Translations under genes and position numbers: made by a program
The notes under the pieces: model-generated
The model's input: the letters and a program-made list of their open reading frames with translations, nothing else
Databases searched by the model: none
What the model was told of the DNA's origin: nothing
In this document: positions 9,643 through 62,333 of the stretch, one piece after another
Layout of the letters: each line of letters begins with the position of its first letter
How positions within the stretch are numbered: position 1 is the stretch's first letter
Origin: Candidatus Bathyarchaeota archaeon
Lineage (GTDB): Archaea > Thermoproteota > Bathyarchaeia > Bathyarchaeales > Bathycorpusculaceae
DNA length: 64,000 nt
Assembly (NCBI GenBank): GCA_963777155.1
Contig: CAVZPM010000036.1
Coordinates: forward strand, 64,001-128,000
Direction: 5' to 3'

Positions 9643-9696
9643 ACGTCAATACAATCTATTTAATGTATAAAGCCTCTTTTCATTGACGAGCGTGTT

Positions 9697-10395: not shown

Positions 10396-10575
10396 AACGA
10401 GCCATTACTATTCACCTTGGAATACAGCCTAATAAATGATAATTCGACAAATTCAATATATCGAGCCAAACAGTACGGTTTATCAGGGAGCTATATTCAG
10501 CTCCATATGCACTCATCGTAGTTCTGCATAAAGAGATCGATTTTACGTGAGAAATTAGCGATTCTTCTGTATAGT

Positions 10576-16664: not shown

Positions 16665-19195
16665 GACGAGAATTTATCGCTGTGTTATTAGCTTTGGGTT
16701 TAGGTTTGGTAGCGGTTGCGCCATTTGAGGCTATTTTTTGTGGGTCTGCGCCAGTTGTGACTGGTAATGACTTTGAGCCTACGATGAGTGTTCCTTTGGG
16801 TGTGGACAAAAATAATAACGGAGTCGAGGATGGTCTTGATTCAGAAATTGCCGAGCAGCTACATATGAGTAGTACAGCAAGTGACGAATACGTGAATGTT
16901 ACAGTCCTTTTGATGAATAAACCGTCGGGTGAGGATGTGGCCATCTTTTCTTCGTCCGGTGGAACCTTAACAACTGAGTTGTGGACAGAAGCTGTTTACG
17001 GTTTTGGGGGACGGATACCCTACAGTGGAATTGTTAGTTTTATTACGCAGTGTTCTGATGTGTTGTTGATTGAGAAAGAGGCAGTTTGCAATGCAACCGT
17101 GGCTTATGCGACGCGGCAAGTGGGAGCTAGACCTTATGTTTGGAGTACGTTGGGGCTTCAGGGAGATCCGAATGCTTCGTTAGCGGTTCTGGATACTGGG
17201 ATTGATTCATCGCATGTTGATTTTGCGCCCGGTTTTGGGAGTGGAGATTTTTCGAAAAAGATTGTTGGGTGGAACGATCAGGTAACATCTTCGGTTGTTC
17301 CGTTTGATGATAATGGACATGGATCTCATTGTTCTGGGTTAGCTGCTGGAGATGGATTTTTTAGTGTTGATTCTTCAGGTTACGCCACTGCCACATGGGG
17401 AGCAAACTTGGGTGCGGTTACAAGCCCTGGCACATTTTTGATTAGCGGTATGATGTTGAATAATTCGGGTGCAATAACGGTTAAGGTAAAGTGGACATCC
17501 ACTGGCACGGCTGCTCTTACAGCGGCTCCATTGTATTATGGTGACAAAACTCTGAGCACGGGGGCTTGGAGTCAAGTTGCTACGGTTAGTACTCCGAGCC
17601 AGAACACTTGGTATACTCTGACGTACAATGTGGTTTCTGTTCCTTCTGGTGGGTATGAGATGTATCATCCGCAGTTGACTTTGAGTTCTGGAACGGGAAA
17701 TCTTTATGTGACGTTTACAATGTCGTGGCCTTACGTGACACCTTCGGATGGTTTTTCGGCTTGGAAAGGTATGGCTTCTGAGTCGAAGCTTGTTGGAGTG
17801 AAGGTTCTTGATTATTCAGGTTCAGGGTCGTCCACTGGACTAATCAACGGCATTAACTGGATTATCGCGAATAGGGTAGGTTACCATATAACTGTGGCTA
17901 GTATGAGCTTGGGCTTTTCCAGCGAAGTTACGCTTGTTGATACCGCTCTTGTGAATCTGGTGAATAGCGGCGTGAGTACAATCGTTTCGGCGGGTAACAG
18001 CGGATCGGGAACCAACCGCATTTATACGCCTGGTTCAGTTGACGAGGTGTTAACTGTAGCATCTGTAGACCAGTTTGATGGAACATCTAGCTTTAGCAGT
18101 CAAGGGGGGACTTCGAGGTACACGGGTAAAACTGTGAAACCAGACATTACGGCTCCTGGGGGCAGTTTCTACGCAGTGCCTTTGTTTAGTGCAGACACGA
18201 ATTATAATGATGCTGACGGCGGGTTTTCTGATGTCACCGCTAATGATGCGGCGCCTATGCAGGGGACGTCTATGTCTTGTCCTGTAGTGTCTGGGGCTGC
18301 CGAAATTGTTGTACAAGCCATAGGAGGATATAGCTCTTGGAGCTGGACAAGAAATCAAGCCCTGATGCCTAAAACTTTGCTTTTGATGACGGCAACAGAG
18401 ACTTACCCGAATCTACGTGAGACTTCTACCTCTACTTCCAGTCCAACACTTAACCGGGGAGGAAAAGATGTGCATGAAGGTTATGGTAGACTTAACGTCG
18501 ATGCCGCAGCGGATGCCGTCCTGAAGACCTACATCGTTGGAACAACTGTGTCAGATAGCTTAGGTAGTCCACCTTCACTGGGAAATATTGCGGTTCTGGG
18601 TCAGAGATTGGCGTGGGCAAGAAACGTTCAGCTTTCTTCAGGCATACAATACAATTTCTCATTAGCCGTTCCATCCGGAGCAGATTACGATTTGTACCTC
18701 TATAATATTACGGGTAACTCCTATGGTGAACCTGTCATCGTTAATAGCGGCGTCTCGGCTGCGACTGGAGGCTTTGAAAAGATTTCCTATACGCCTTCTA
18801 ACTCCGGAGAGTATTATCTTGTTGTGAAGCGGGCAAGAGAAGACACAGGAGCGGGGCAGTTTACTTTGATAAGCACATTTAATCAGACTGCTCATCTTAT
18901 GTTGTATGCAGATCCTGATCAAGCCGCCTATGTGAGAGGGCAGTCTTTGATTTTGAAGGTTACTATGTTTAATGGGTTAGATCTTGCTTATGGGTCTGTT
19001 TTGACTATTACCGTGACTGGACCTAGTGGTTACAGCTTCTATGATTTTCAATCGATTAGTGTTACGGCAAATAGCGTTGGGGAGTACAGTTTTACATGGA
19101 ACGCACCGAATATTCCCGGAACCTATGTTGTTGAAGCTGGTCTAGCGCCATCATCATTAACTGCCTATGATGTGAAATGGGTGAATTTAACCTAA
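16652..19195 (+). CDS. Secreted S8 subtilisin-like serine protease with inserted domain, PPC-like domain and shared C-terminal domain
   Basis: VLDTGID, HGSHCSG, SAGNSG and GTSMSCP catalytic motifs; GADYDLYLY PPC-like motif. Confidence 0.92.
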   Translation: MVCIRREFIAVLLALGLGLVAVAPFEAIFCGSAPVVTGNDFEPTMSVPLGVDKNNNGVEDGLDSEIAEQLHMSSTASDEYVNVTVLLMNKPSGEDVAIFSSSGGTLTTELWTEAVYGFGGRIPYSGIVSFITQCSDVLLIEKEAVCNATVAYATRQVGARPYVWSTLGLQGDPNASLAVLDTGIDSSHVDFAPGFGSGDFSKKIVGWNDQVTSSVVPFDDNGHGSHCSGLAAGDGFFSVDSSGYATATWGANLGAVTSPGTFLISGMMLNNSGAITVKVKWTSTGTAALTAAPLYYGDKTLSTGAWSQVATVSTPSQNTWYTLTYNVVSVPSGGYEMYHPQLTLSSGTGNLYVTFTMSWPYVTPSDGFSAWKGMASESKLVGVKVLDYSGSGSSTGLINGINWIIANRVGYHITVASMSLGFSSEVTLVDTALVNLVNSGVSTIVSAGNSGSGTNRIYTPGSVDEVLTVASVDQFDGTSSFSSQGGTSRYTGKTVKPDITAPGGSFYAVPLFSADTNYNDADGGFSDVTANDAAPMQGTSMSCPVVSGAAEIVVQAIGGYSSWSWTRNQALMPKTLLLMTATETYPNLRETSTSTSSPTLNRGGKDVHEGYGRLNVDAAADAVLKTYIVGTTVSDSLGSPPSLGNIAVLGQRLAWARNVQLSSGIQYNFSLAVPSGADYDLYLYNITGNSYGEPVIVNSGVSAATGGFEKISYTPSNSGEYYLVVKRAREDTGAGQFTLISTFNQTAHLMLYADPDQAAYVRGQSLILKVTMFNGLDLAYGSVLTITVTGPSGYSFYDFQSISVTANSVGEYSFTWNAPNIPGTYVVEAGLAPSSLTAYDVKWVNLT

Positions 19196-23775: not shown

Positions 23776-26106
23776 TTGGGTCGGCGCTGGAAGCTGTTTC
23801 TTTGTGGGTTTGCATTTTGCTTGTTGGTTGTTACGTCTTTCTCAACGGTTCTTTCTGGGTCCTTGCAGGGTGCCGAGGGTGGTGTATCCCAAGCTGACTC
23901 TAGCTTGCAGGCTATAGGAGCGGAAGCTGTAGAAAATTTCACGATTGTGGTCTTGCCCGACACTCAGTTCTACAGTGAGAGTTACCCGGGGATATTTGAC
24001 AATCAGACTCAATGGATTGTTAATGAGCAAGAAAACTTGAATGTAGTATTTGTCACGCATGAAGGTGACATCGTGAATCAAAATGCGGTGGCTCAGTGGC
24101 AGAACGCGAATCGGAGCATGAGCAAGTTCGTTGATAATGTGGCTTGGGGGGTTTTACCCGGAAATCACGATGGCGCTGCCTCTGGTGGAAGCTTGACAAA
24201 CTATAACACATTTTTTGGTTATAGCCGATTTGCAGGTGAGATTTGGTATGGGGGCCACTACTTGAGCAGCAACGCGAACAATTATGAGTTGTTCTCAGGT
24301 GGAGGAGATGACTACTTGATTTTTCATTTTCAGTATCAACCAAGTGATGCAGTCTTGGCTTGGGCTAACAGCACAATAGTCGGCTATCCTGATAGGAGGG
24401 TGATTGTTGTGACTCATGATTATCTGAATGTGGATGGATCAAGGACAACTGAAGGCAATCACATATGGAGTAGTTTTGTTGCTCCTCATGCTGATCAGGT
24501 AATGCTTGTTCTTTGTGGTCACAACCATGGCGAAGCGAGACGAAGTGATACGGTAAACGGTTTTGTGGTTCCTCAGCTTCTGGCAGATTACCAAGCTGGG
24601 ACCAACGGTGGAAACGGTTTCTTGCGAATTCTTAAGTTCTGCCCCACTCAAGACAAGATATATGTTACCACGTTTTCACCATACCTCAACAGTTATGATA
24701 ATGACGCAGATAGCAAGTTTACATTGAATTATGATATGTCAGGGGGGTTTTTGGTAAGTCTGCAATCGCCCAATGATGCAATAACCACTTTGGATAATAT
24801 GCCTGATTTCAAATTTGTCGTTTCACATTCGAATCAGTTAACGTTTAATTGTTCTTTGTGGCTGCAGAATGCGTCTTACCAGGCCATTTTTGCCAGCAAG
24901 ATTAACTTAATTAACGGTTCGCTCACCACGGTAACGCCCGACTTGCCGATTCCAAACGGTAATTGGTTGTGGTGGATAAACTGCACCGACGGTTCCGCGA
25001 GCAGCATCAGCGATAAGAGAACAATTACCATCAATGTTTTCAGAGGAGACAAAACGTTTGTGGCTAGTTACGATGGCAGCACAAGGAATTATTGGCTTGA
25101 TTTGCCGGATAATTTTGACACCGCACGTTCAACGCCGCTTGTGTTCTATTTGCATGGTTATGGAGGCAGCAGGTATTCCTATTATCAACAGTTGCCTGTT
25201 CTTAGGCAGGTATTTCAGAATCACACCTGGATTGTTGTAGCTGTTGAATGCCGAGAAAAAAGCGGGTATGACGATTGGTACATTGAACAAACAAGAAGTG
25301 ACATTACAGATGTATTGAACCTACTTAGAAATGAGTATACAATAGATTCCAGCCATATACACGTCGTGGGAGCGAGCATGGGAGGAGGCGGAGCACTAAA
25401 GTACGCCATGTTCAACCCTCAAATTATCGCCAGTTTGGTCGACATATACGGAATAACCAATTTCACTAAATTCTACAATGACGACACCCAAAACCAGTTT
25501 ACTGCTTCGCTTAGGGCAGCTTACGGTGGAACACCCTCACAGGTCCCTCTGGTCTATGCAAACGAGAGTGCGCTGGGAAACGAAGTTCGCTTCCAACATA
25601 CACCCGTAATGATTATTCATGGATCCAGTGATCTAACAGTTAATGTTGCCCAATCGCGAGCACTTAACCAAAGCTTAAGCATACTTGGATACACCGTCAA
25701 GTACATCGAGGTGCCAGGAGCAGGTCACAGTGCATCAATTGTTAACGGCAGGGAAATGGTGATTTTCAACTGGCTTAACGATCATCCTATGGGAGGCAAT
25801 ACGCACCTTCTGCTCAACATTCAGCCAAACCAAGATACTTATACAAAAGGACAATCGTTAACCTTGGTTGTGACTGCGTTTAATGAGCATACCCCCGCTC
25901 TAGAGGGCATCTTAACGTTAGCTGTCACTGGAGCGAGCGAATATGGCTATTTTGATTTTCAAACAATAAACGTAACGTATGGCTCAGTTAGAGAGTACAG
26001 TTTCGATTGGAGTATTCCAGATGTAGCCGGAACCTACGTAGTGGAAGTCAGTCTGGTTCCAGCACAATTGACGGCGTATGACACAACATGGCTAAAGGTG
26101 AACTAA
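23776..26106 (+). CDS. Secreted metallophosphoesterase / alpha-beta hydrolase fusion with shared C-terminal domain
   Basis: PDTQ, EGD, GNHD, TH and CGHNH calcineurin-like motifs; HGYGG, GASMGG, HGSSD and GAGH hydrolase motifs; ends LTAYDTTWLKVN. Confidence 0.85.
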   Translation: MGRRWKLFLCGFAFCLLVVTSFSTVLSGSLQGAEGGVSQADSSLQAIGAEAVENFTIVVLPDTQFYSESYPGIFDNQTQWIVNEQENLNVVFVTHEGDIVNQNAVAQWQNANRSMSKFVDNVAWGVLPGNHDGAASGGSLTNYNTFFGYSRFAGEIWYGGHYLSSNANNYELFSGGGDDYLIFHFQYQPSDAVLAWANSTIVGYPDRRVIVVTHDYLNVDGSRTTEGNHIWSSFVAPHADQVMLVLCGHNHGEARRSDTVNGFVVPQLLADYQAGTNGGNGFLRILKFCPTQDKIYVTTFSPYLNSYDNDADSKFTLNYDMSGGFLVSLQSPNDAITTLDNMPDFKFVVSHSNQLTFNCSLWLQNASYQAIFASKINLINGSLTTVTPDLPIPNGNWLWWINCTDGSASSISDKRTITINVFRGDKTFVASYDGSTRNYWLDLPDNFDTARSTPLVFYLHGYGGSRYSYYQQLPVLRQVFQNHTWIVVAVECREKSGYDDWYIEQTRSDITDVLNLLRNEYTIDSSHIHVVGASMGGGGALKYAMFNPQIIASLVDIYGITNFTKFYNDDTQNQFTASLRAAYGGTPSQVPLVYANESALGNEVRFQHTPVMIIHGSSDLTVNVAQSRALNQSLSILGYTVKYIEVPGAGHSASIVNGREMVIFNWLNDHPMGGNTHLLLNIQPNQDTYTKGQSLTLVVTAFNEHTPALEGILTLAVTGASEYGYFDFQTINVTYGSVREYSFDWSIPDVAGTYVVEVSLVPAQLTAYDTTWLKVN

Positions 26107-27724: not shown

Positions 27725-27912
27725 AAAGTTACTGTTGTTGCGGACGATTGGTTTGTTGCTATGGTAACGTTGGACATCTGTGAGCTAGGTAATGTTTCCT
27801 CTGATTGCAAGCTCAACTATTGAACCACTATCCGTCGTTGCTTTAACGGTTGTTTCTAATGGAGTCGGAGAAGGCGACGCCTTTATTGTCGGAGTCGGAG
27901 TAGGGATTGGAG
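27725..27912 (-). repeat. Inverted repeat copy B (188 bp)
   Basis: Reverse complement of 22344..22530 plus one inserted base. Confidence 0.95.
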
Positions 27913-28949
27913 GGCTTGTTGGTTTTGGTGTTGATACCGGCATTGATGTGGGATTTGGTATTGATGTTGGTGTTGGAGTTGATTGTGGAGTGGGCTCTGG
28001 CGTTGCGGGCGGGGAATTTGTTACTTCGAACAAATTGCTGACTCCTGTGCAATTCCCATAATTAACTGTGATATTGACGTCCGAGCCAGGAGCATTCACG
28101 GTAACTGAAGTCGAGCCTACACCATTAATGAAAGCATCAACCGTGCTAGGACTAATCGATCCTGCAGAATAAGTCAGTGAGGGCGAGCCGACATAGCTTG
28201 TAGCGGTGTTTCCATACACGTCTTTAGCCGTTACAGTTATGCTGAAAGCAGAACCAGCAGTCTGAGGACTACTGATAAGAGCAAAAGTGAAACGGTTAAG
28301 AGCTCCAGGATTAACCGTAAAGATGTTGCTTGTTCCAGACACACCCGAACCAGTTGTAAAAAGCGTAACTACAGAACCTGCACCAGTAACCGTCACTGAA
28401 CCTATCCAAACACCATTCGAGAACGAACCAGTGACAGATGGACTAACAGTGCCAGTTGAAACATTCAAAGCATTAGCTCCAATATAGTTCGCAATAAGAT
28501 TATTGGAAGCATCCTTAGCTGTAATTGTTATGTTAAACGATGTACCCGCAGTCTGAGTACCAACAGAAATAAACTCAAAATGATCAGGTGGAGGAAAATT
28601 CACGGTAACAGACACAGCAGAACCCGTAGCACCATCATAGTTAGTATCGCCACTGTAAACTACTCGGAACTGGTAACTACCAACAGTTGGAGGAATATAG
28701 GTCGTAGAAGCCGAACCACTGCTCAAAGGCACCATAGAAGCGATGTTTGTCCATGAACCAGTACCGATTTTAACTTGGAAAGTGGCCGTACCAGTCGGAG
28801 CCGCGCCTCCAGAAACACCAGAAATAGAAACAGAAGCTGTAACTGTATTATTAACGATAACTGGGTTTGGATCAACTAACGGAACTGGGACACTTGGATT
28901 AGCCTTATTTACAGTTAGAGATGCAGTACTCCCTGTTATGGTATTGTAG

Positions 28950-29350
28950 TTGTTGTCGCCACTGTAGACTGCGCGGATACGATAGTTGGTTCCTACCGTG
29001 TTGGGAGTATATGGATCTGAAGTTGCAGAACCAGTAGACAACGTCACTACAGCGCCAAGTTGGGTCCATGTTGAACCGCTGGTTGTAGAATATTGGAATG
29101 TTACTGTTCCCGTCGGAGTGATACCTGAAACTCCAGAAACGGTTGCGGCAGCAGTTACTGATCCTCCAAGTTGGATGGGGCTTGTTGGGGTGAGAGTTGG
29201 AGCTGGAACAGTTGGATTAGCCTTATTAACCGTTAATGATGCCGCGTTTCCTGTTGCACCATTGAACTTGTTGTCGCCACTGTAGACTGCGCGGATACGA
29301 TAGTTGGTTCCTACCGTGTTGGGAGTATATGGATCTGAAGTTGCAGAACC
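28950..29350. repeat. Two identical 83-bp direct repeats (28950-29032, 29268-29350) in tandem Ig domains
   Basis: Exact match with 318-bp spacing, encoding GSATSDPYTPNTVGTNYRIRAVYSGDN. Confidence 0.9.
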
Positions 29351-29834
29351 TTTAGACAACGTTTTGTTAGCACCAAGCGCATTCCAAGTTGTACCGCTGT
29401 CAGTTGAGAATTGGAATGTTATTGTTCCGGAAGGTGTACCTCCAACGCCACCTACAATAACGTTAGCCGTCACAGAACCGCCTAAATTGATGGGGCTAAC
29501 TGGACTAAGGCTTGGAACAGAAACAGTTGGGGAACCAGCAGCTTTGACGACTTGCGAACTTGCAAGTAGGCACATTGAAAGCAAAATCAAAAATGCTACT
29601 ACAAGCAATTGTAGTTTCTTCATACGCTTCAACTTGATGTTGATAGTTGACCTAAGTTCGGGTCATTTATCTACTAAAATACAAGGTTTCTATTTGGTTA
29701 AACCTTTCCTAATCTGATAATCTCAGAGTTGCACATGCATAAAAAAGATAAGGCATAATTCGTTAATAGAGTCAACAGTAATGAGAATGCTTTCTCCCAC
29801 AGTTTTTTGATGAAAAATGAGGTAAAAAAAGGGG

Positions 29835-46156: not shown

Positions 46157-48316
46157 TTAGCTTAAGTCGATTCTTGCTATTTGTTCAAAGTTGTCTAAGC
46201 TGTTTAGTTGTACTCTTGTTTCGCTGAAGGTGTATAGCACGTTTTCTATGTATAGGGATCGGGTTATGAAGTGGTTGTAGTCAACCCATTGATAGGAGCT
46301 GCGGGTTATCAGAGCTGGGTCGTTCATCAGGGCTGCTGCGTTGTCCATTTGTGTGACGTTTCCTTGCAGTTCAAATCCGTTGGTTAAGCTTACTTTGAAT
46401 ATGTAGACACCTTGCCACACGAATTGTCCGTAGGTGTCGGGGGAACTTGATCCTGTGCCGATTCCTCCAACTTGAGTTGATGCTGTGAAGCCTGGAGTCG
46501 TCGCTGCTGGAGGCAGTGTTTTTTCGGGTACTCCGGTGATTATTGAAGTTGCAGTTTGATTTATCAAATACAGATCTACAGGTAGCACTAGTAGGCCTTT
46601 TGCGCTATCAAATAGGAAAGCTTTGGGCTCGTATAGGGCTTCGCTGCTGGTTCCTCGATCGCCAATATTGAATTTGGCTATTTCTTTTGGGTTATTTACG
46701 TCTGCAACGTCAAATATTGAAAGCTTCAAACCCAAATACCACGCAAAGTTCCCCTCTGAAGCTACGGCATCTTTGCCTAACCCAATCAGATGAGTCTCAT
46801 CGAATGGATGCAGATAGTCTGAGTAGCCTGGAATGACAAGTTCGCCTAGAAGTTTTGGATTGTTAGGTTGACTTAGGTCTATTACGAATAATGGGTCTGT
46901 TCTTTGGAAGGTTACTAAGTAGCATCGGTTGCCCATGAAACGGGCAGCATGGAAGTTTTCTCCTGTTCCTAGATTTTCGAGTTTGCCAACGGTTCGTAGG
47001 TTCATATCCAGCACGTAGATGTTGTTTTGCTGTGTTGAGGTGTAAGTTGCGGAATTGTAGTTGTAGGCTGTGGTGGCGATTCGGAAGTAATTGTTACTCT
47101 CGTCCATAGCATACTGGTTAAGTACGTTGCCTGTTACGTTTCCCTGAGCAGCAAACGTCATTGAAGACCCGGATATTGCTATTCGATAAATTGAAGTCTT
47201 CTCTTGCCATGTTTCTTGCGGTATACTACCTATTGGAGCTCCCCCAGTAGTTGCTGGTTCTCTTAGTAGTTGAGGGGTGTAGCTTGGATAGGTGACGTAT
47301 ATGTTGGTTTGTGAGACGTATATGGTTCCTGCGCCTCCCATCATAATTGTCATGTTTGAGGGGTTCTGATTGATGTTTTGCAGGTTAAAGGCCAGGAAAG
47401 TTGTGTAGGAATAGTAGCTGTCTGTGAAGTTTGTGTAGTAAATGTTGGCTGGTGCAATTTCAGACGTTTTAGCTCCAGAATTTATCATCGGCAATATTGG
47501 TGTATCATTCACCAGGTACGCGTTCTGGTTAACTATGGCATAGACGTATCCTTCGATCATTCTGGAGTTGACGTAGTTGCCAGTCATAGTGAAGTTACTT
47601 GCCAGTTCCGGGCGGTTTTTGTCTGTGACATCATAGATGTGAACAAAGGTTGTTCCGCTGTTCCAGTAAGGATACAAATCTGTTGAGAAACCAGGTTGAA
47701 GTTCTCCATTGTCAGTATAAACGTAGGGAACGTATTGGTTACCTAGCACGATGAGTTTGTTTGTGTTTTCGTTTAGGTAAATTCCTGATAAGTATGCGTT
47801 TTCGTAGGGTATTTTGTAGAGAACTTTGGCGTTTTGTGGGTTAGCATCCAAAATGTAGACTGTGTTGTTTCCAATCATGTAGATGTAGTTTCCATCTGTC
47901 TTGACCTTGTCTGCTTCATCTACGCCTGCAACTTGAATGTTAGTTGTAGAGTAATCCTTTGTGTTTGTTCCACCCAGACTTGACTCAGCTTGGCTCGGAA
48001 CAGCTGAGGGTGCCTGAGAAGAGAGTCCAAATCTTGCATCGTAGGAGCCAAAAGATGATGATCCCGTGCTTGTTTTCAGAAAATCCGCAAGAGCGCTGAC
48101 GGATGAAAAAGTCATCATCGAAGAGACTTGGGGATTATTGCTGTCGGGGTTTGGATTATTGTTATTGTTGTTGGAACCTGGATTGTTCAATGGACCCTGA
48201 TTAGGCGTCAATGACTCGTTATTAAAACTGTAGATTGATGCAACTAGCAAAACAGCTAGTAAAATTGCAGCTAAAGTGTAAATTGGCAGTTTCTTGTTAA
48301 TTTCTTTCTGAACCAT
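46157..48316 (-). CDS. Secreted beta-propeller domain protein (Beta_propel family)
   Basis: YSTTNIQVAGVDEADKVKTDG, LNQYAMDE, VTFQRTDPLFVIDL, IPGYSDYLHP. Confidence 0.9.
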   Translation of the reverse strand: MVQKEINKKLPIYTLAAILLAVLLVASIYSFNNESLTPNQGPLNNPGSNNNNNNPNPDSNNPQVSSMMTFSSVSALADFLKTSTGSSSFGSYDARFGLSSQAPSAVPSQAESSLGGTNTKDYSTTNIQVAGVDEADKVKTDGNYIYMIGNNTVYILDANPQNAKVLYKIPYENAYLSGIYLNENTNKLIVLGNQYVPYVYTDNGELQPGFSTDLYPYWNSGTTFVHIYDVTDKNRPELASNFTMTGNYVNSRMIEGYVYAIVNQNAYLVNDTPILPMINSGAKTSEIAPANIYYTNFTDSYYSYTTFLAFNLQNINQNPSNMTIMMGGAGTIYVSQTNIYVTYPSYTPQLLREPATTGGAPIGSIPQETWQEKTSIYRIAISGSSMTFAAQGNVTGNVLNQYAMDESNNYFRIATTAYNYNSATYTSTQQNNIYVLDMNLRTVGKLENLGTGENFHAARFMGNRCYLVTFQRTDPLFVIDLSQPNNPKLLGELVIPGYSDYLHPFDETHLIGLGKDAVASEGNFAWYLGLKLSIFDVADVNNPKEIAKFNIGDRGTSSEALYEPKAFLFDSAKGLLVLPVDLYLINQTATSIITGVPEKTLPPAATTPGFTASTQVGGIGTGSSSPDTYGQFVWQGVYIFKVSLTNGFELQGNVTQMDNAAALMNDPALITRSSYQWVDYNHFITRSLYIENVLYTFSETRVQLNSLDNFEQIARIDLS

Positions 48317-53189: not shown

Positions 53190-54570
53190 TTAATCTCTCA
53201 AGGTTATAATCACTGATATATCGTTAACATTGGTTCCTGTTGATCCTGTGTAGATGAGGTCGCCAAGTTTCGAGAAAAAATTGTAGGAATCATTATTCGC
53301 AATATACTTTTCAGGATCCAACCCTAATTGCCTTGCTCGTTTCAGCGTGGATCCGTCAATGATTGCTCCTGCAGCATCTGTTGCCCCATCAATTCCGTCT
53401 GTGTTAAAAGAAGCAATTACGCATTCCTCAGATTCTTTAAGGTTCAAAGCTGCGGACAATGCCAGCTCTTGATTTCTACCACCCATCCCTTTTCCCCTAA
53501 CGGTTACAGTTGTCTCTCCACCAGCGACAATCCCCAGAGATCTAGAAGTATCGTTGCAGACAAAACCTTCATTGGCAAGTTTTGCTAATGTTTTCCCAAC
53601 TTCCTTAGCCTCACCCGCCAACATATCAGCTAATAATAATGTGTTAAGTCCTTTAGAACCTAAGAAGTCAATGGCGCCTAGGCAAGCTGTTCGGTTGTTA
53701 CCAATCACCAAATTGTGAACTTTTTCAAAAACAGGATCATTTGGTTTAGGTGTTTCCTGAAGCAGACCACTTGCGCCTTCTGAAAGGATCTTGCGAATAG
53801 AAACTGGTATCTTCAACCATAAATCATATTTTTCAAGGATTTTTCTGGCATCACTAAATGTTGACGTGTCAGGAACTGTTGGACCAGAGGCGATTGAATC
53901 AAGTGGGTCTCCCATGACATCTGAAAGTACAAAGTTTAGGAGCGTAGCTGGATAAGCTTTTTTTGGCAAGCCATCCGCCTTTGAAAGCTGAAAGATGTTT
54001 TCGAACAGCGTTGATTTCGGTTATTTCGGCACCGCTTTTGAGAAGGGCATTCGTAAGTTCTTGTTTATCCTCGAGTGATATGCCTTTGCGAGGAAGCGGC
54101 ATAAGACTTGACCCGCCGCCTGAAATCAGGCAAATAACTAAGTCATCTTCTTTGGCTTGTTCGGCTAAGGCCATAATTCGTAAAGTGCCCGCTACTCCTG
54201 CTTCGTCAGGAACTGGGTGGCGGGCTTCGTTTAGTTTTATAACTTTAGTTTTTTGGCTTGCACCATAAGGAATGTTTACAACTCCAGCGGTTATATGGTT
54301 GCCCAGTATCTCTTCTATGGCTTGCGCCATTTTACCGCCTGCTTTTCCTCCCCCTACAACGTAAACGTGTTTGAACTTCCTCAAGTCAAACGTGCAGTCT
54401 TCAACCACGAACTGATCGTTTTTAACTTTCATTTTTGCCTTAATCAGCCGCTTAGGGTCTGCAGCGTTAACAGCTTGCTCAAGGCACTGAAGAGCTAGGT
54501 CACGGCATCTGCGAATATTTGATGTTTCTCCGTTTTCGATTAACTTATCTCGATTTATAATTTTTACCAT
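53190..54570 (-). pseudogene. Glycerate 2-kinase (MOFRL family) split by a frameshift in an A7 run
   Basis: GGGKA, HPVP, LISGGGS and KGG in one frame; SDVMGD, IASGPT, GGETTV, GGRNQE, TDGIDG and TGTNVND in the next. Confidence 0.88.
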
Positions 54571-54786
54571 TCGCTTTACCGTGAAATTTTTTCTACCAGT
54601 CAATATGGATATGCCTAAATAAACAATCTTGTATCGGGCTATTTTAAAAAAAGGATTTGGTTTTGCCCTTTAAATGTTCATACGTCGTGGAGTTTCGTTT
54701 TTGGATTCATTTGACCGACCATTTAGGTATCTATGGAATTTCAGCCGAAATCGGTTGGATTATCCACAGCCGCAGGAGACCCAAAA

Positions 54787-56877
54787 CTAATTTTGAACCG
54801 GGCGAGATTTGAACCGTATTCGATTGTGGGGGGTACTGGTTGCAACAAAGTCTCTAACGAAGCGTCCATCGGTTCCAGGTCCAGAATACTTTGAGGATGG
54901 GTGGAAGAAGGTCACAAATGCGTCGAAGTAGTTCTCTTCAATCTGGGTTTTATATCCTGAGATATACTGCAAGTTTACTGCGGCCGACTTAACGTTGCCG
55001 TATCCTTCAACCATAATGCAAGCCGGCGGAAGTACGTATTGCGGAGGATGGAGCTTTATCGGCACCGTCCACCCCGCGAATAAGGTGTTGGCATGGACTA
55101 GTATTTGGAGTTCGTCTTTTTTGAGCAGTTGAAAATTCTGTCCTGCAGGCGTACCGGCAAACAGCCTTTTCCGAACTGATTGACTTCTCGGATTGTCTCC
55201 CACTTGAGCCACTGGCACGTAGGCAAAGCCGGTTGGTGTCTCAAGCCACAAGAAGAGTATCAAAGCATCTTCTGCCCCGGTAGTCGAATGTTTCTCTATT
55301 TTTTGAACGAAAATCATCATGTCAGGTAATTCAAAGTAGTCTGGAGTATGAATGATGGCTGTTGCAACAGTAGCATACATTCGTGTGACGCCGTTCGCGG
55401 GATTTTCTGCCCGTGTTTTCTGAGCATTCAGGATTTTGTTTAAAATGTCTTTTTCCGCTGCTGTTCCGAGAAGCTTAACGTCAGTGATCATGGTATCGCT
55501 CGTCTTTTCCCGTGTCGGAAGGATATTCTTAGGAAGCGGAGTGAGCGTGGGTCCATAGGGTACAAGTACTGATTCCAGTGTGACAGATGATGGAGGGTGA
55601 GCATTTTTCCAAATGTCGTTTAGAGTTCTTTTTGTTTTTTCCACGTACTCAAGGTCATTGGTGTAGAAGGTGTTATCGAAATGCGGTGTTGACTCAAGGT
55701 TATCTTGGTCTGGAGATCGTGTCTTGAATTGGAAGAGGTGTTTTCCGTCGACGATTGTGGTTCCAAGATAGTTTAAGGGAGCGTGTCTGACCTCACAGAT
55801 TTTTGAAAGCTGTTTTGCTGCCTCAAAGTTCTCGCTTATTATAGGCGCCATGATTTTGATTGAGACCCCGTTTTGGCTCCAAGCTGCGACGAGGACTATT
55901 TGTTTGCAGATTTCAATAATTCCTTTCGAGGAAGTCAACAGTATGATTTCCTCATTTGCCGACCGCAACGTTTCATTGTATTTTTTCTCGGCTGTCTTTC
56001 CATCGACAATAACGTATGTTTTGGCTGGTGGCTTGCCAGTTTCGATTTCGGCTATCTTTTTGCCAATGTCTGTTGAATTGCGCCATAAGTCTTCAAAGAC
56101 AGCAGTAAATGCTTGCACAAGAGTCTTACTGTCTGTCCAGAGGCACACGTCATCTTGTTCTATAGCAGACGTTTCCGTTCGCGGTCTAATGAAGAATAAC
56201 GCTTCTTCCTCATCTCTTAAGACCATTTGAGGAAACATACTCAAGCTAAGGTCTGGGTTTCTTCCCTCTACGTTGAGTTTAGCTTTTGCAGTTTCCTTCA
56301 GAAGAGCTTTCATGGCATTTACGTTCTGCTTTGATAGTTCGACAAGGAATCGGAATTGAATCTGGGATTTCAAAGGATGAGGGAATCCAATGTCGAAAAT
56401 GCCTCGTTGATCAGCTTGGATCAAGCCCGGAACCGTTGTTATGGTTAGAATTTGGTTTTTTGTTTCTTGGATCATTTGCTGGATTCTTGAGTATATATAG
56501 CTCCTACCTTCAACTACTGTAAACTTTGCGGGCATGTCTTTTTCTGCAATTTTGAGGCTCTGCCAATTGGAGAGAATTTCTTTTTTGCTGCTTTGCAGTC
56601 GCCGTGTTTCTTCCAGCTGCGCCTTTATGAATAAGTCCAAAACTTTTTCAAAGGGCAATGCGCTGAACCGAGCGGGATGCTCAATGGTGGAGCTTATTAT
56701 TCCCTTGCTTTTCATGCTCCTAAGACTGGAGTAGAGCTGCTCCTTAGATATTTTTAGTGCTTTGCGTATGTCTAATCCCTTTTGTAGACCCTTCTTGGCG
56801 AGAAAAACGTAGACGGCGGCATCTATGTACGTGAGTCCAAAGTCCATAAGTGTCTTAAGCACTTGTTCTTGACTCAT
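54787..56877 (-). CDS. TrmB-family regulator with two degenerate PLD-like domains and an extra C-terminal domain
   Basis: N-terminal wHTH (LMDFGLT...VYVFL...LYSSL...KGII...PARF), duplicated FEDLW/LNDIW segments; ATG 56877 preferred. Confidence 0.88.
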   Translation of the reverse strand: MSQEQVLKTLMDFGLTYIDAAVYVFLAKKGLQKGLDIRKALKISKEQLYSSLRSMKSKGIISSTIEHPARFSALPFEKVLDLFIKAQLEETRRLQSSKKEILSNWQSLKIAEKDMPAKFTVVEGRSYIYSRIQQMIQETKNQILTITTVPGLIQADQRGIFDIGFPHPLKSQIQFRFLVELSKQNVNAMKALLKETAKAKLNVEGRNPDLSLSMFPQMVLRDEEEALFFIRPRTETSAIEQDDVCLWTDSKTLVQAFTAVFEDLWRNSTDIGKKIAEIETGKPPAKTYVIVDGKTAEKKYNETLRSANEEIILLTSSKGIIEICKQIVLVAAWSQNGVSIKIMAPIISENFEAAKQLSKICEVRHAPLNYLGTTIVDGKHLFQFKTRSPDQDNLESTPHFDNTFYTNDLEYVEKTKRTLNDIWKNAHPPSSVTLESVLVPYGPTLTPLPKNILPTREKTSDTMITDVKLLGTAAEKDILNKILNAQKTRAENPANGVTRMYATVATAIIHTPDYFELPDMMIFVQKIEKHSTTGAEDALILFLWLETPTGFAYVPVAQVGDNPRSQSVRKRLFAGTPAGQNFQLLKKDELQILVHANTLFAGWTVPIKLHPPQYVLPPACIMVEGYGNVKSAAVNLQYISGYKTQIEENYFDAFVTFFHPSSKYSGPGTDGRFVRDFVATSTPHNRIRFKSRPVQN

Positions 56878-57001
56878 TTTTGCTTTCCTGAGCGCCCCCA
56901 CGCACTTGGTAATTAGACTGGTAGTTTTCTTTCCTACTGCCTCTAGTATATACCTTCTAAACTAAATAATATTTTCCGCTCAGAAAAAAAGAGAAGGAAA
57001 A

Positions 57002-57667
57002 ATGATGAAAAAACTGATTAAAGGAACTATTTTGACGTTGTCTCTTGCATTCATTGTTGCATCTGCTTGCTTTGCACCAGCTTTTGCCTCAGTGACATAC
57101 TACCAACATACTAATTTATCCGGAGAAGTGATTATCGACATAGGGGACCACCAACCACCAATTAGGGTATCAGTTGTGCATCTTGACCGAGGCGATCACG
57201 GGGTCGCAGATTTTCTTGAAGTCTCGACATACCAATTTATTCCTCCGCTCGGCAGATCCGTTTGGGCGTCAGTTGCTGTTGTAACCGATTCCCCTTCAAT
57301 GGCCGCTTTTTTCAAGGATTTTATCTTTAAGGGTCTTCCCGGTACACCCGTAACTATTTTGTTGGTCAATCACTGTCAGCTTCAGTTGTCAAGAGTATGC
57401 AAAACTGTCTTTGCCTACTGGACTGAATCGATAGCAACACCCACGGTAACGCTACCTCCAGGATGCTTGATGTTCAGAGGATACGGCTCTGCCCAAACTG
57501 ACCACAAGGTGGAAAACTTGCCAAATGGCGTGACGATAACCTTTGACAGGGTGGGTTACGATGCGCACGCAACCTTTGTTTGTCCAGCGTGGAAGTACTG
57601 TGGACCTGTCGGAGACGAAACCACAACAATGTACGTCGCTGAGGATACGTGGATAAGCCACGCTTAA
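57002..57667 (+). CDS. Secreted protein homologous to the C-terminal domain of the adjacent TrmB regulator
   Basis: Signal peptide (MMKKLIKG...AFA); collinear motifs shared with the regulator C-terminus. Confidence 0.8.
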   Translation: MMKKLIKGTILTLSLAFIVASACFAPAFASVTYYQHTNLSGEVIIDIGDHQPPIRVSVVHLDRGDHGVADFLEVSTYQFIPPLGRSVWASVAVVTDSPSMAAFFKDFIFKGLPGTPVTILLVNHCQLQLSRVCKTVFAYWTESIATPTVTLPPGCLMFRGYGSAQTDHKVENLPNGVTITFDRVGYDAHATFVCPAWKYCGPVGDETTTMYVAEDTWISHA

Positions 57668-57764
57668 TCCCCCCGAAGAAAACGTTCGCCATTAACCTTC
57701 CCTCTTTTTCTTTAGAATAATTAATCCAGTTAATTGGACATGCGGGTGAAGAGATGGTGATTGA

Positions 57765-58115
57765 TTGAGCCTTGAACGCATGCTAGATATACTAGCGAGT
57801 TTAGGGCTCACACAAAGGGATGCCCAAGTCTACATTTACCTCGCCAAAAAAGGTCCTCATGGAGAAATGGACCTTATCAATACCATGAGACTAACTAAGC
57901 AGCAACTTCACATCAGCCTAAGAAATCTGGAAGCCAAAGGAATGGTAATCGCTTCTTTGGAACCTTTAATTCAGTTCTCCGCCATCTCGCTTGAAAAAGT
58001 TATTGACCGATTTATGAAAGCAAGGGAAGAGCAAGCGAAAGCTTTGCAGGCAAGCAGAAAGGAGCTTCTTTCAAGTTGGCGTTCGATGATGAAAAATGAT
58101 ACTGCCACCAGTTGA
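57765..58115 (+). CDS. TrmB-type HTH-only protein
   Basis: Aligns with residues 1-110 of the long regulator, including the KELLSSW/KEILSNW helix. Confidence 0.85.
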   Translation: MSLERMLDILASLGLTQRDAQVYIYLAKKGPHGEMDLINTMRLTKQQLHISLRNLEAKGMVIASLEPLIQFSAISLEKVIDRFMKAREEQAKALQASRKELLSSWRSMMKNDTATS

Positions 58116-58201
58116 AACAAAGCTCCTTAACAAGTTGAAATTCGCAGTTTAAATCATTCGAGTAAGCACTATATACTATCTGATTCAATAGAAGGCAAGA
58201 C

Positions 58202-59419
58202 ATGACAGTAACACCGTCTGTCGGGCAGTCCTCATCGAAAATGATACTTGTCGTGGCACTGCTTGTCGCAGTTTTTGCAGCTGCCGTTGTAGACGTTGTG
58301 ATTCCCATCAACATTGTAGACATAGCAAAAACGTTCAGCATTCTCCCTGGAACAGTATCCCAACTTGATTCCATAATCGCCCTCGCCGCAGTAACCACTG
58401 CGCTGTTGCTGGGTGCTTTCGGCGCAAGATTCAGTTACAAATCCCTTGTAATGATAGGTATATTGTTTATTGCAGCCTATGCTATCGGGTTTTTCTTAGC
58501 TCCAACTTTTCCGATAACTCAACTCATTGTTCCATTAAATGGCATAGGGTCAGTCTTGATAGTTGTGACGGCTCAAACGTTTATAGGAAACTCTTATCCG
58601 TTGGACAAAAAGGCTAAAGCAATCGGTTGGATTTCAGCAGCTGGAACGCTGGCAAATGCAGTTGGAGCTCCAATAATCGGCTTTATGACGGTTATCGGAG
58701 GATGGCGCTCTGCCCTTGTGTGGTTTATGCTGCCTACTGCGGTTGTCAGCCTGATTTTTGTGTTCCTAGTTTTCCGATTTAATCTGCCTGAACCGCAGCC
58801 GAACGCTAAGAAAGCGCCTTTCATGGATGGCTTCAAGCAGATTCTTACCAGCAAATCAGCCATCGCCTGTTTAGTCAGCGCTTTTCTTGTCAATGGTTCT
58901 GTTTTCGGGGGCAATGTCTTCGAGGTAACGTTATACAGACAAATATTCTTGGTGTCGCCCGGTTTTGCAACGTTGATTGGGCCGACAGCAGGCATTGCGC
59001 TTATTGCTGCGGGGGCTGTGATTGGTGGTCACACGGTTAATCGCGTGGGACGGAAACGCTTGACTGTGATCGCTTCTTTCTTGGCAGGAGTGTTCATGTT
59101 GGTTTCTTATTTTGTTCCAGATTTATGGATGCGTGTAGCACTGCGTTGGACTGCCTCGTTTATCGGCGGCGTTTCGTTAGCTGCGTTTGCCAACTTGATG
59201 ATTGAACAAGTTCCGCTTTTTAGGGGGACTGTGATGTCGCTGTCCTCAGCTTTTAGCGGTGTGGGTGCTGCTGTTGGTATCAGCGTCGCAGGAGTAGTGA
59301 TCAACCTCTACCTTAACCCATCGGTAGGTTTCCAAGCGTTAGGGTTAACGATGGGCACCTTCGCTATCGTCTCTGTGCTTTTCATGCTTTTCTTGGCGAA
59401 AGACCCAACCAAAACCTGA
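58202..59419 (+). CDS. MFS transporter
   Basis: About 12 TMs, NRVGRKR motif, RGTVMSL. Confidence 0.9.
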   Translation: MTVTPSVGQSSSKMILVVALLVAVFAAAVVDVVIPINIVDIAKTFSILPGTVSQLDSIIALAAVTTALLLGAFGARFSYKSLVMIGILFIAAYAIGFFLAPTFPITQLIVPLNGIGSVLIVVTAQTFIGNSYPLDKKAKAIGWISAAGTLANAVGAPIIGFMTVIGGWRSALVWFMLPTAVVSLIFVFLVFRFNLPEPQPNAKKAPFMDGFKQILTSKSAIACLVSAFLVNGSVFGGNVFEVTLYRQIFLVSPGFATLIGPTAGIALIAAGAVIGGHTVNRVGRKRLTVIASFLAGVFMLVSYFVPDLWMRVALRWTASFIGGVSLAAFANLMIEQVPLFRGTVMSLSSAFSGVGAAVGISVAGVVINLYLNPSVGFQALGLTMGTFAIVSVLFMLFLAKDPTKT

Positions 59420-59786: not shown

Positions 59787-60320
59787 TTAAAGATTTTTGA
59801 GGTAGTCAATTATTTTTAAGTAATCTTCAGCCGAAACGTACCAGCCGCTGTCGCGCATTTCTTTAACTTTCTCTATTAGCTTTTCCTTGTCGATTTTTCC
59901 AGTTGCATAGATTTTGCCCAAGATGTATCCGGTTCCGTGGAGTTCTATTCCCAGAATCCTTGCAACGGATCTGGCGACTTTATCGTCAGCTACAGCTACA
60001 CCATTTAGCTCCTTTGTTAAGCAGAGAATCTCGGCTTCTGCCTCATGTAATGGTTGCATTTCATTTACTGCAGCCATTTCCTTCACATATTTAAGGTATC
60101 CTTTGTTGCTGATGTTGTGAACCTTGATTATTTCTTTTTCGAATAATGTTTCTAAAAGCGACGATTCCGGAGCTCTTTTCCTTTTGCCTTCGTGGACTAC
60201 TTCTTCAAACACGCTTGCCGTAGTAAATTTTGGTTGGATAATTTCTTTTAGAAACTCTGCTAAAGAAGACCTTGTCAAGTAAATTAGAGGGGTTGAGTCG
60301 AAGACCAGCGGTTTAGGCAT
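59787..60320 (-). CDS. PIN-domain toxin (DUF3368-like)
   Basis: VFDSTPLI, VFEE, LHEAEAE, DDKVAR, HGTG. Confidence 0.85.
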   Translation of the reverse strand: MPKPLVFDSTPLIYLTRSSLAEFLKEIIQPKFTTASVFEEVVHEGKRKRAPESSLLETLFEKEIIKVHNISNKGYLKYVKEMAAVNEMQPLHEAEAEILCLTKELNGVAVADDKVARSVARILGIELHGTGYILGKIYATGKIDKEKLIEKVKEMRDSGWYVSAEDYLKIIDYLKNL

Positions 60321-60637
60321 TATTGTTCCTTCAAAGCTTTTTCGAAGTCTTCGCGGAAGTCCTCATACGACTACTGGAAAGAAATTTTTCTTTGCCTCAC
60401 TATCTCCATCATTTCCCAGAGGGATAAACCTGCGATCTTTGAAGCTTTCCACAGGGTTACTTTTCCGCCACTATAGAGCGCTAATGCCCTTTCGAGTTTC
60501 CTGTCTGCAATTGCCTTTGCTAAGAGTTTTCTGACCACAGTGGCACGGTCTGACTTTTCTTCTTTTTCGATTTCTTCAATGTCTTTAGCCATGTCTTCAG
60601 GAACTCGTGTTGAGACTATTTCGGTCATTGCTTTCAC
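60320..60637 (-). pseudogene. UPF0175-family antitoxin with internal TAG at 60371-60373
   Basis: RHH + HTH; the frame continues after TAG as SYEDFREDFEKALKEQ and ends in a TAATG overlap with the toxin start. Confidence 0.75.
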
Positions 60638-61349: not shown

Positions 61350-61793
61350 TTAGAGCTCAACGAAGGGGTTTTGTACCTTAATGAATCCATATTTATTGAA
61401 GTCTCTCACATTTTCAGTATAAATAACGTCTATCTTGTTTACCTTAGCAGAAACAGCCAAGATGCAATCAAAGATACTGGAGCCCGATAAACTCTTGCTC
61501 TTAACGAGGTTGAAGACTTCTCTAGGCACTAACTCGGAAGAAGCGATTTTCTCAATTTCGCCACATTCCCACAGATCCAGGCATAACTCAGCGGCTCTAT
61601 CCGGCGGCAAGGGCAATTCGACCCTCTTAGCGTTGGTAATGACCGCAAAAAACTCGAAAAGCACTTGCTGAGCAATACACGCTTGTATCTCCCCCGCCAT
61701 CGCTCTCTCCATTATATTTCTGGCAACCTTTTGGCGAGGGGACGCCTGGTTGTAAGCATGCACTAGAATGTTCGTATCAAGTAATATCTTCAT
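61350..61793 (-). CDS. vapC: PIN-domain (VapC) toxin
   Basis: LLDTNIL, LFEF, IFDCIL, TENVRDF. Confidence 0.9.
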   Translation of the reverse strand: MKILLDTNILVHAYNQASPRQKVARNIMERAMAGEIQACIAQQVLFEFFAVITNAKRVELPLPPDRAAELCLDLWECGEIEKIASSELVPREVFNLVKSKSLSGSSIFDCILAVSAKVNKIDVIYTENVRDFNKYGFIKVQNPFVEL

Positions 61794-62019
61794 AAATCTC
61801 TTCTCTAGAAAGGCGCCCTTTTATCCGGCCAAGATTAGGCGGGTTTTCGAGCATTTCACGTGCTAACTTTGCCTTATGGCATCCTCGGACTACACTCAGT
61901 TTAGCAACTCCTTTTTCTACAACTTCAATGTGTAGTACATCGCCATCTACTAGACCAAGCTTTTCTCTAACTCCTTTGGGTAAGTAGACTTTGTCCTCGT
62001 AGTAAGTAGTTTCAGCCAT
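61777..62019 (-). CDS. AbrB-family antitoxin
   Basis: KVYLPKGVREKLGLVDGD...LSREEIYE; ATG 62019; overlaps the toxin. Confidence 0.85.
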   Translation of the reverse strand: MAETTYYEDKVYLPKGVREKLGLVDGDVLHIEVVEKGVAKLSVVRGCHKAKLAREMLENPPNLGRIKGRLSREEIYEDIT

Positions 62020-62333
62020 ATCAACACTGGTTACCCAATGAATTGGGCAAAATATAAACTTTGCCAACACTATTCTTTCCATGCCAGTCAGGTTTTTGAG
62101 GCTTTTAAGACGCATGAAAAATGCTTAAACTTAGGACGAAAACGGAACCAAAGGCTTAGCGCCGGGAGGGGATCCAAGCACCAATTTGCCAATACTCTAT
62201 GTTTTGGCGACTGGATGAGATGATTGTAGCTTTCGATCTTTGCGGCATTCAGCTAGCAGACTATCCGTGATTTAAGACAGAATTTGCGGGTAGATTTATT
62301 TGTATGTATGTATACATTATGTATTGGTAATAA

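Follow-up and report, generated by a model that had tools for sequence, protein, structure and literature searches.

A long TrmB-type regulator and its divergently encoded secreted neighbour share an undescribed domain in a gene cassette of Bathyarchaeia

The divergent genes and their shared domain

We analysed a stretch of 64,000 nucleotides (hereafter the window) from the genome of a Candidatus Bathyarchaeota archaeon (Bathyarchaeia, Bathyarchaeales, Bathycorpusculaceae; assembly GCA_963777155.1, contig CAVZPM010000036.1, positions 64,001 to 128,000), which carries a cassette of four genes (Table 1). A long regulator of the TrmB family is encoded head-to-head with a small protein predicted to be secreted, which is followed by a TrmB paralogue reduced to its helix-turn-helix (HTH) part and by a major facilitator superfamily (MFS) transporter. 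The C-terminal ~170 residues of the regulator are homologous to the mature part of the secreted neighbour, and we call the domain common to the two "X". The gene positions and the head-to-head layout are as described in the initial annotation of the window, and the PF01978 and MFS_1 matches of the two downstream genes bear out the identities it had given them. The regulator probably starts at an ATG (M9) rather than at the GTG that opens its open reading frame (ORF), since its homologues begin at M9, and the divergent spacer is therefore 124 bp long.

The collinear match between the end of the regulator and the whole mature secreted protein, proposed in the initial annotation by eye, proved significant both by BLASTP and by profiles built on either side. 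BLASTP aligns residues 561-678 of the regulator (P0001) with 88-205 of the secreted protein (P0002) at 54.7 bits (E 5e-13; 38 of 120 positions identical, 32%). A hidden Markov model (HMM) made from TrmB-fused copies alone and run against 1662 ORFs of the genome matches residues 52-205 of the secreted protein (88 bits, E 6e-26), and the one made from secreted copies alone matches residues 514-678 of the regulator (105 bits, E 1.5e-31) in the same set. When the pair is aligned with 16 homologues by MAFFT, the five sequence blocks first quoted as matching fall into register, the close homologues of the secreted protein being 16 in number and 167-226 residues long.

By inspection and with a heuristic of our own, the N-terminus of the 221-residue protein is predicted to be a Sec-type signal peptide of the signal peptidase I kind. 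It consists of MMKKLIK, the 17-residue hydrophobic stretch GTILTLSLAFIVASACF and APAFA, with cleavage predicted before the following serine. The alanine at position 29 is kept in at least 90% of 52 secreted relatives, and a lipobox is unlikely because the cysteine of the hydrophobic region is not conserved. The home-made heuristic by which signal peptides were called throughout is passed by 237 of the 1662 genome ORFs of at least 150 residues (14.3%).

Domain X appears to be uncharacterised, as had been supposed at the outset. Neither copy has a match in Pfam or NCBIfam, the Pfam search of the complete 221-residue protein returned no family, and in Pfam the 52 secreted members did not score below E 0.04. 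Searches of the PDB sequences with X alignments stayed at chance level (alignment A1, E 0.57; A3, E 0.62 or worse), including the single match to an arabinose-binding protein (E 0.57), and no Peripla_BP or LacI family of Pfam, which would indicate a type I periplasmic-binding-protein fold or a LacI-type HTH, was matched by the regulator, the secreted protein or its 52 relatives. Two homologues looked up in the ESM Atlas gave no usable match (best score 0.77, below the chance range), and PADLOC returned nothing. A search of the literature at the level of listings and the openings of abstracts, outside subscription journals and supplements, found no description of domain X, of the long TrmB subfamily or of the arrangement.

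A profile search of 1.84 billion representative sequences retrieved 332 proteins at E <= 0.001, 244 of them at E <= 1e-10. We built a tree of 150 X domains from the best matches listed, the 16 close homologues and the window's own pair; its rows comprise 58 long TrmB-type proteins with a C-terminal X, 52 proteins of ~212-247 residues with the same type of N-terminus as the secreted protein by our heuristic, and 40 fragments. Among the 332 matches, X occurs almost only in two contexts, at the C-terminus of TrmB proteins of ~690 residues or in secreted proteins of ~220 residues, the exceptions being P0347, in which it follows a hydrolase part and DUF4082, and P0331, which looks like two genes read through. 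The tree separates a secreted clade of 57 rows from a regulator clade of 93. The branch between them is ~1.2 long and is supported by a value of 100 in the Shimodaira-Hasegawa-like approximate likelihood ratio test on either side of the midpoint. Such a long and fully supported split argues for one old divergence and not for repeated local duplications; as its root is not fixed, the tree does not order the two forms in time.

By a crude Chou-Fasman estimate, the X alignment has a dozen or so strand segments with hardly any helix, so the domain looks nearly all-beta. Mean-field direct coupling analysis (effective number of sequences 278) yields weak signals, with z at most 6, that suggest antiparallel strand ladders and in which D70, D96 and G67 couple. 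No internal repeat and no recognisable catalytic motif were found in X. Residues kept in both clades are, in P0002 numbering, G67 (G542 in P0001), D70 (D545), D96 (D569), W140 (W611), P152-P153, G162, A188, P195, Y199 and G201. The regulator clade alone keeps E632 (94%), N589 (93%), S539 (92%), N657 (81%) and F662, and the secreted clade alone C194 and W197 (94% each), H60 and K134.

Regulator architecture and divergent promoter region

Besides the winged HTH domain, part of the TrmB effector domain is recognised directly in the regulator (PF11495, 30.3 bits; cut-off 22.2). We compared it by profile-profile alignment (hhalign) with a set of 19 canonical TrmB proteins of the same phylum, all with a full PF11495 match: regulator residues 10-281 correspond to canonical residues 4-251 (probability 99.4%), and residues 281-436 correspond once more to canonical residues 98-248 (probability 63.5%, E 6.8e-5). 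The NCBIfam TrmB model also matches weakly at residues 302-397. On the strength of this comparison, the order of the parts is winged HTH, coiled coil, two successive effector N-subdomains, linker and X.

According to a review of the canonical sugar-sensing regulators TrmB and TrmBL1 (PMC4158304), the sugar is held in Thermococcus litoralis TrmB by the flattened beta-barrel C-subdomain, where it is contacted by Asn305, Gly320, Met321, Val324, Ile325 and Glu326. By hhalign, canonical residues 252-349, which make up this sugar-binding subdomain, have no counterpart in the long regulators, and the part bearing the contact residues has none that can be aligned. We also rejected the idea that X is a diverged form of that C-subdomain, the X profile reaching a probability of 0.06% against the 19 canonical proteins. 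The scores of the regulator with the TrmB/TrmBL1 equivalog models of NCBIfam are 15-37 bits, against cut-offs of 600-650. Judged by its sequence, the regulator is a member of the TrmB family and not a canonical sugar-sensing TrmB/TrmBL1. Its sole sequence match in the PDB is the TrmBL2 structure 5bpd, through the N-terminal part (E 0.014). Its own C-terminal part is shared by 898 clusters of proteins of 387-1232 residues, and nearly all among the 120 listed are ~680-720 residues long and carry PF01978.

A paralogue in the same genome (G000:C39:111443-113125, minus strand; 1012-2694 of locus L050) is instructive. It is the one further protein of the genome with this scaffold, a winged HTH followed by tandem effector N-subdomains (two PF11495-like stretches; 264 bits with a profile of this middle part), but a pair of CBS domains (PF00571, E 5.4e-13) stands where X would sit. 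CBS pairs are known ligand-binding modules, and the replacement identifies the C-terminal position as a sensor slot in which modules can be exchanged. The slot divergent to this paralogue also differs, holding no signal-peptide gene; the nearest such ORFs lie on the same strand, ~1.3-3 kb upstream.

Long regulators are not always intact. About 10 of the 51 that we collected are split into two or three ORFs (L034, L036 at 8951-10998, L039, L040, L082, L087, L102, L103, L104 and L115), and one genome has only broken pieces of regulator and secreted X, lying side by side (G352:C14:1295588-1297038). These are decaying copies or frameshifts of the assemblies.

The HTH-only protein matches PF01978 over residues 10-76 (34.5 bits, E 1.8e-8) and is 43% identical to residues 9-116 of the regulator (E 2e-29); it comprises a winged HTH and a coiled-coil helix, without an effector domain. 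A pairing of each HTH-only protein with its own regulator was considered and found unsupported, as the partner ranks anywhere from 1 to 30 of 30 by similarity among 30 cassettes.

Between the divergent genes lies an imperfect inverted repeat, GGTAGT-N10-ACTGCC, which we regard as a candidate operator. Alignment of the intergenic regions of seven related loci shows it to be conserved; two of the loci (L033 and L043) have a perfect repeat, (T)AGTCG-N9-CGACT(A), and the motif has one match in the 2.29-Mb genome. In most of 32 divergent spacers a similar repeat is present 25-50 nt from the regulator start, with a T-rich spacer and with arms that differ between paralogues. This is the pattern expected of a family of local, autoregulating paralogues. 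Rfam and tRNA scans of the window were empty.

Recurrence of the cassette and its secreted partners

Of 401 genomes sampled from the class, 25 have a match to a profile of the regulator form of X. By family, they are 18 of the 103 from that of the window and 5 of the 18 from another in its order, while a third gave one fragment in 10 genomes. In the window's genus, 10 of 40 genomes match. Matching genomes have one to eight copies, and a sample across the phylum gave three matches in 301 genomes, all in the window's family. No relatives were found in plasmids, nor in viral contigs by a pattern-limited scan. The cassette is confined to a few uncultured lineages.

Starting from homologues of the secreted protein, we found that the HTH-only gene follows in 8 of 8 loci, that the long regulator lies divergently upstream in all five with enough DNA, and that the MFS gene follows directly in three. 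Whole-genome matches add three genomes with the regulator/secreted-X pair, one of which has it twice. We then surveyed ~10 kb around every long regulator found, with HMMs of our own and the signal-peptide heuristic. These loci come from 22 genomes, two further genome records and two metagenome contigs, two of the loci being identical copies on one contig; they comprise 51 regulator units, of which the 46 with at least 1.2 kb of upstream DNA are the base for the following counts. An ORF with a signal peptide lies within 2.6 kb upstream of 39 regulators and is missing from seven. It is divergent from the regulator in 33 cases, as its immediate neighbour in all but one, and on the same strand in six. 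This distribution suggests that the TrmB proteins of ~690 residues are a dedicated family of secretome regulators. An HTH-only TrmB lies within 2.6 kb upstream of 36 of the 46.

The partner is a homologue of X in 16 of the 39 cases. Fourteen are linked by BLAST, and the two identical copies and the more diverged groups were confirmed by hhalign (probability 92-99%). The divergent pair is found in the window and at L032, L033, L034, L035, L041, L043, L044 and L045, and in more diverged form at L038, L039/L102, L083, L092, L104 and L106, so that the recurrence anticipated in the initial annotation holds for 16 of the 46 regulator loci. An MFS gene lies within 4.5 kb of 17 of the 46 regulators: 11 of the 16 X-type cassettes, versus 6 of the 23 with another secreted partner and none of the seven without a partner. 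Among 11 related loci, nine have the same MFS family, which is the sole transporter common to the loci, ABC transporters not being so; beyond the four cassette families no gene is common to them.

The other partners are diverse. An undescribed family C of signal-peptide proteins of ~175 residues (~172-182) occupies seven loci and an undescribed family B of ~190 residues (~185-200), without Pfam match, occupies five (Table 1); esterase-type alpha/beta hydrolases are found at two loci (PF00756 in one), two proteins related to each other at two more, and there are eight singles. That families B, C and the singles might be hidden homologues of X is unsupported, with hhalign probabilities of at most about 2% against the X profiles, and none of the other partners shows a detectable likeness to X either.

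Across 15 pairs, distances between secreted X copies track those between the X domains of their partner regulators (Mantel r 0.74, reached by none of 5000 permutations), the secreted copies diverging faster. X-type partners are also clustered on the tree of regulator X domains, with 8 changes versus a mean of 12.6 on shuffling, a value of 8 being reached in none of 500 shuffles. Taken descriptively, it is well supported that the locus is a self-contained regulatory cassette of some Bathyarchaeia.

Two side observations concern the surveyed loci. L039 and L102 are one cassette present twice on the same contig (G232:C22), ~48 kb apart and in opposite orientation, with secreted X-type proteins that are 100% identical. 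At L094 (2320-4005, plus strand), a protein of ~550 residues encoded upstream of the regulator and the HTH-only gene has an N-terminal hydrophobic segment and collagen-like G-x-y repeats (GPKGDTGDAGVTGATGPQG...).

Elsewhere in the window, the minus strand carries two toxin-antitoxin-like pairs just downstream of the cassette, a DUF3368/PIN-like gene with a UPF0175 gene (59787-60637) and a PIN gene with an AbrB/MazE-like one (61350-62115). On its other side, a glycerate-kinase-like gene (DUF4147 and MOFRL; 53190-54603, minus strand) is split into two overlapping ORFs in different frames, one (53899-54603) covering DUF4147 positions 2-176 and the other (53190-53969) positions 175-233 and MOFRL, which points to a frameshift near 53900-53969, in a pseudogene or by assembly error. 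The region from 1181 to 48316 is rich in envelope and secreted functions: two Wzx-like flippases (1181-2782 and 11758-13341), a polysaccharide deacetylase with PKD/Ig repeats (13893-16664), a subtilase (16652-19195), a metallophosphoesterase fused to a BD-FAE/esterase-type hydrolase (23776-26106), an Ig-repeat protein (27785-29632) and a beta-propeller protein (46157-48316).

Table 1. Features of the cassette in the window, and members, at other loci, of the two partner families not detectably related to X.
Feature	Coordinates	Strand	Remarks
Long TrmB regulator, ORF (P0001)	54787..56901	-	704 aa; GTG at 56901
Long TrmB regulator, gene from the likely ATG	54787..56877	-	696 aa; ATG at 56877 (M9), from which homologues align
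Winged helix-turn-helix DNA-binding domain	56647..56850	-	aa 18-85; PF01978, E 4.3e-10, 39.7 bits (cut-off 25.6)
TrmB effector N-subdomain, first copy	56059..56544	-	aa ~120-281; PF11495 match at aa 221-280; hhalign
TrmB effector N-subdomain, second, diverged copy	55594..56061	-	aa 281-436; hhalign
Domain X, regulator copy	54853..55365	-	aa 513-683; undescribed, looks all-beta
Inverted repeat GGTAGT-N10-ACTGCC	56920..56941	.	divergent promoter region; candidate operator
Secreted X protein, ORF (P0002)	57002..57667	+	221 aa; head-to-head with the regulator
Signal peptide of the secreted protein	57002..57088	+	aa 1-29; cleavage predicted between AFA and S
Domain X, secreted copy	57122..57640	+	aa 41-213 of the 221-aa protein
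HTH-only TrmB paralogue, ORF (P0003)	57765..58115	+	116 aa
MFS transporter, ORF	58202..59419	+	405 aa
Family B partners	L080:3767-4321, L081:3765-4355, L088:2163-2750, L091:5638-6210, L041:9884-10495		slot beside long TrmB regulators
Family C partners	L036:6507-7034, L093:3648-4322, L097:3507-4025, L098:5712-6254, L099:2255-2773, L103:3296-3832, L109:5662-6210		upstream, divergent or on the same strand

A possible binding module and its known counterparts

A link between X and secreted hydrolases is given by P0347, a protein of 758 residues from the representative library in which an alpha/beta-hydrolase-like part is fused to DUF4082 and to a secreted-clade X. The regulators of L083 and L084 are nearly identical, but the partner is of the X type at L083 and a hydrolase-type signal-peptide protein of 510 residues at L084. 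The latter matches residues 1-451 of P0347 at 46% identity (E 3e-128), and the partner at L092, made of DUF4082 and X, matches the remainder at 43% (E 1e-75). Fusion of proteins that are elsewhere encoded separately is a usual sign of parts acting together, and the union in P0347 of counterparts of the L084 and L092 slot proteins agrees with X being an accessory binding module for enzymes outside the cell. Whether P0347 itself is an active hydrolase is uncertain, because the nucleophile elbow GLSYG of the L084 protein is not kept in its BLAST alignment.

We tentatively favour the view that X is a binding module at work on either side of the membrane, as a sensor inside and as a substrate binder outside. 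In its favour are the position of X, in a sensor slot that the sugar-binding subdomain occupies in canonical TrmB, the exchange for a CBS pair in the paralogue, the fusion to a hydrolase-like protein, the association with the MFS gene and the polar positions kept in both clades. In the mechanism that we consider most likely, the long TrmB protein would act as a one-component regulator that recognises the inverted repeat of the 124-bp spacer and controls its own gene as well as those for secreted X, the HTH-only TrmB and the MFS transporter. Outside the cell, the free copy of X, either by itself or together with secreted hydrolases, would bind a substrate or part of one; the transporter would move a related small molecule across the membrane, and the X of the regulator would bind that molecule inside, altering DNA binding.

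Several observations weigh against this view. The polar residues kept best in the regulator clade, E632, N589, S539 and N657, vary in the secreted clade or, for E632, give way to a basic residue, and C194 and W197 of the secreted clade are mostly H and S in the regulator clade; since the residues specific to each clade differ, the two copies may not bind the same thing. X-type partnership requires at least eight gains or losses on the regulator-X tree, and 23 of the 39 secreted partners are not homologues of X, which together imply that shared homology is not needed for the cassette to function. Co-diversification is what any two linked genes show, the surveyed loci are kin and not independent samples, and the signal-peptide calls depend on a heuristic that 14.3% of the ORFs of the genome pass. 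As to the transporter, MFS proteins normally work without binding proteins, and this one resembles efflux (DHA1/Bcr-CflA) and uptake families about equally weakly.

The strongest rival is that the homology reflects history and not mechanism. The regulators would control whichever secreted protein fills the divergent slot; secreted X would have arisen once, by duplication of the 3' part of a regulator gene and addition of a signal peptide, and would by now have an unrelated extracellular job, with the X of the regulator serving oligomerisation or an unconnected sensing. Apart from the unrelated partners, the eight or more changes and the differing clade-specific residues, such a scenario would explain why very close regulators have different partners (L039 and L109; L083 and L084). 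It accounts less well for a pairing that survives down to 20-35% identity between secreted copies and tracks the divergence of the regulators, for the MFS gene being kept far more often in X-type cassettes (11 of 16 versus 6 of 23), for the polar positions held across both clades, and for the CBS swap, which points to a sensor slot rather than to a mere oligomerisation piece. We regard it as a serious possibility, although on the unlikely side.

The initial annotation had gone further, proposing that a single small molecule is sensed inside, handled outside and carried between the two by the MFS transporter. Its sensor-module part is favoured by the position of X, the CBS paralogue and the hydrolase fusion; the single ligand common to both copies fares worse, given the clade-specific polar residues and given that partners unrelated to X are just as common.

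The transporter itself matches MFS_1 (PF07690, 118.1 bits, E 5.3e-34) in two stretches that cover both six-helix halves. Its strongest NCBIfam matches are efflux models (2_A_01_02 multidrug, E 2.8e-11; Bcr/CflA, E 2.3e-10), and a local regulator divergent from an MFS pump, as in TetR/TetA, is the classic layout of drug efflux. X in the regulator could sense a toxic or signalling compound in the cytoplasm and switch on an exporter, with secreted X as a sink or carrier outside. Yet all these matches are far below the cut-offs, as are those to aromatic acid:H+ symporter models (TIGR00895, E 5.3e-9; PcaK, E 2.7e-5), the MFS gene is missing from 5 of the 16 X-type cassettes, and the X-hydrolase fusion and esterase partners fit substrate acquisition better than a sink. 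We therefore consider a role in efflux or detoxification improbable.

Paralogy and strict adjacency, and nothing else, would also fit an export-coupled partner switch resembling FlgM/sigma-28, in which the precursor of the secreted protein docks on the X of the regulator through an interface inherited from a common homo-oligomer, and its export reports secretion capacity or frees the regulator. The partners with which most of these regulators work are not homologous to them, there is no indication of oligomerisation by X, and Sec substrates are normally exported unfolded and quickly, all of which makes this switch very improbable indeed.

The binding-module view can be extended, with X as a new ligand-binding fold deployed by a few lineages of Bathyarchaeia in matched pairs, a TrmB-fused sensor and an exported binder for the same family of substrates with an MFS transporter between them. 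This would be an archaeal, ABC-independent counterpart of the LacI/periplasmic-binding-protein systems, and the ~690-residue TrmB subfamily would define a class of cassettes for secreted proteins not recognised before, each made of a regulator, a small secreted protein from one of several new families and an HTH-only partner, by which these archaea would adjust their set of extracellular proteins, perhaps for plant-polymer or aromatic substrates. In this full form the proposal seems doubtful to us. Bathyarchaeia are abundant and almost uncultured, and very little is known of how they sense substrates and control secreted proteins. The cassette offers a testable handle on both: besides a regulator with its candidate operator and a transporter, it includes a secreted protein that is soluble and should express readily, as well as a new domain of ~170 residues that occurs in both compartments. 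Were the two copies to bind related ligands, the secreted one could serve to identify the regulator's effector, and together they would form a sensor and binder, ready for use, for the nutrients of these archaea.

Among known systems, the canonical TrmB and TrmBL1 regulators of Thermococcales (PF01978 and PF11495) share with the long regulator the winged HTH, the coiled coil and the effector N-subdomain, and are likewise local regulators beside transporter genes. Here, however, the N-subdomain is duplicated, the sugar barrel is absent, X stands at the C-terminus of a protein about twice as long, and the transporter is of the MFS and not the ABC type. The 116-residue neighbour resembles the sensor-less TrmB proteins (TrmBL2; MreA and OxsR) in being made of a winged HTH and a coiled coil, and differs from them in accompanying a long sensor-bearing paralogue (36 of 46 loci).

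In RbsR/RbsB, a regulator of the LacI/GalR type and a periplasmic binding protein are encoded in one operon. The origin of the LacI/GalR family from periplasmic binding proteins is stated in PMC6079105. These systems come closest to ours, in that one fold serves as a cytoplasmic effector domain and as an exported protein beside a transporter, the likeness being here one of arrangement, read from sequence; what sets the bathyarchaeal cassette apart is another DNA-binding domain, an undescribed and apparently near-all-beta domain, an MFS instead of an ABC transporter, and an archaeal host. The sensor domain of BlaR1/MecR1 and the class D beta-lactamases are likewise paralogues in one locus, the first sensing a compound on which the second acts as a secreted protein. 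In that case the sensor is outward-facing and signals across the membrane, whereas the X of the regulator is predicted to be cytoplasmic, is fused to a DNA-binding domain and carries no recognisable catalytic motif. The principle of one fold shared by the sensor of a repressor and an exported binder is thus already known, and it is in the domain, the DNA-binding family, the type of transporter and the host that the cassette described here differs.

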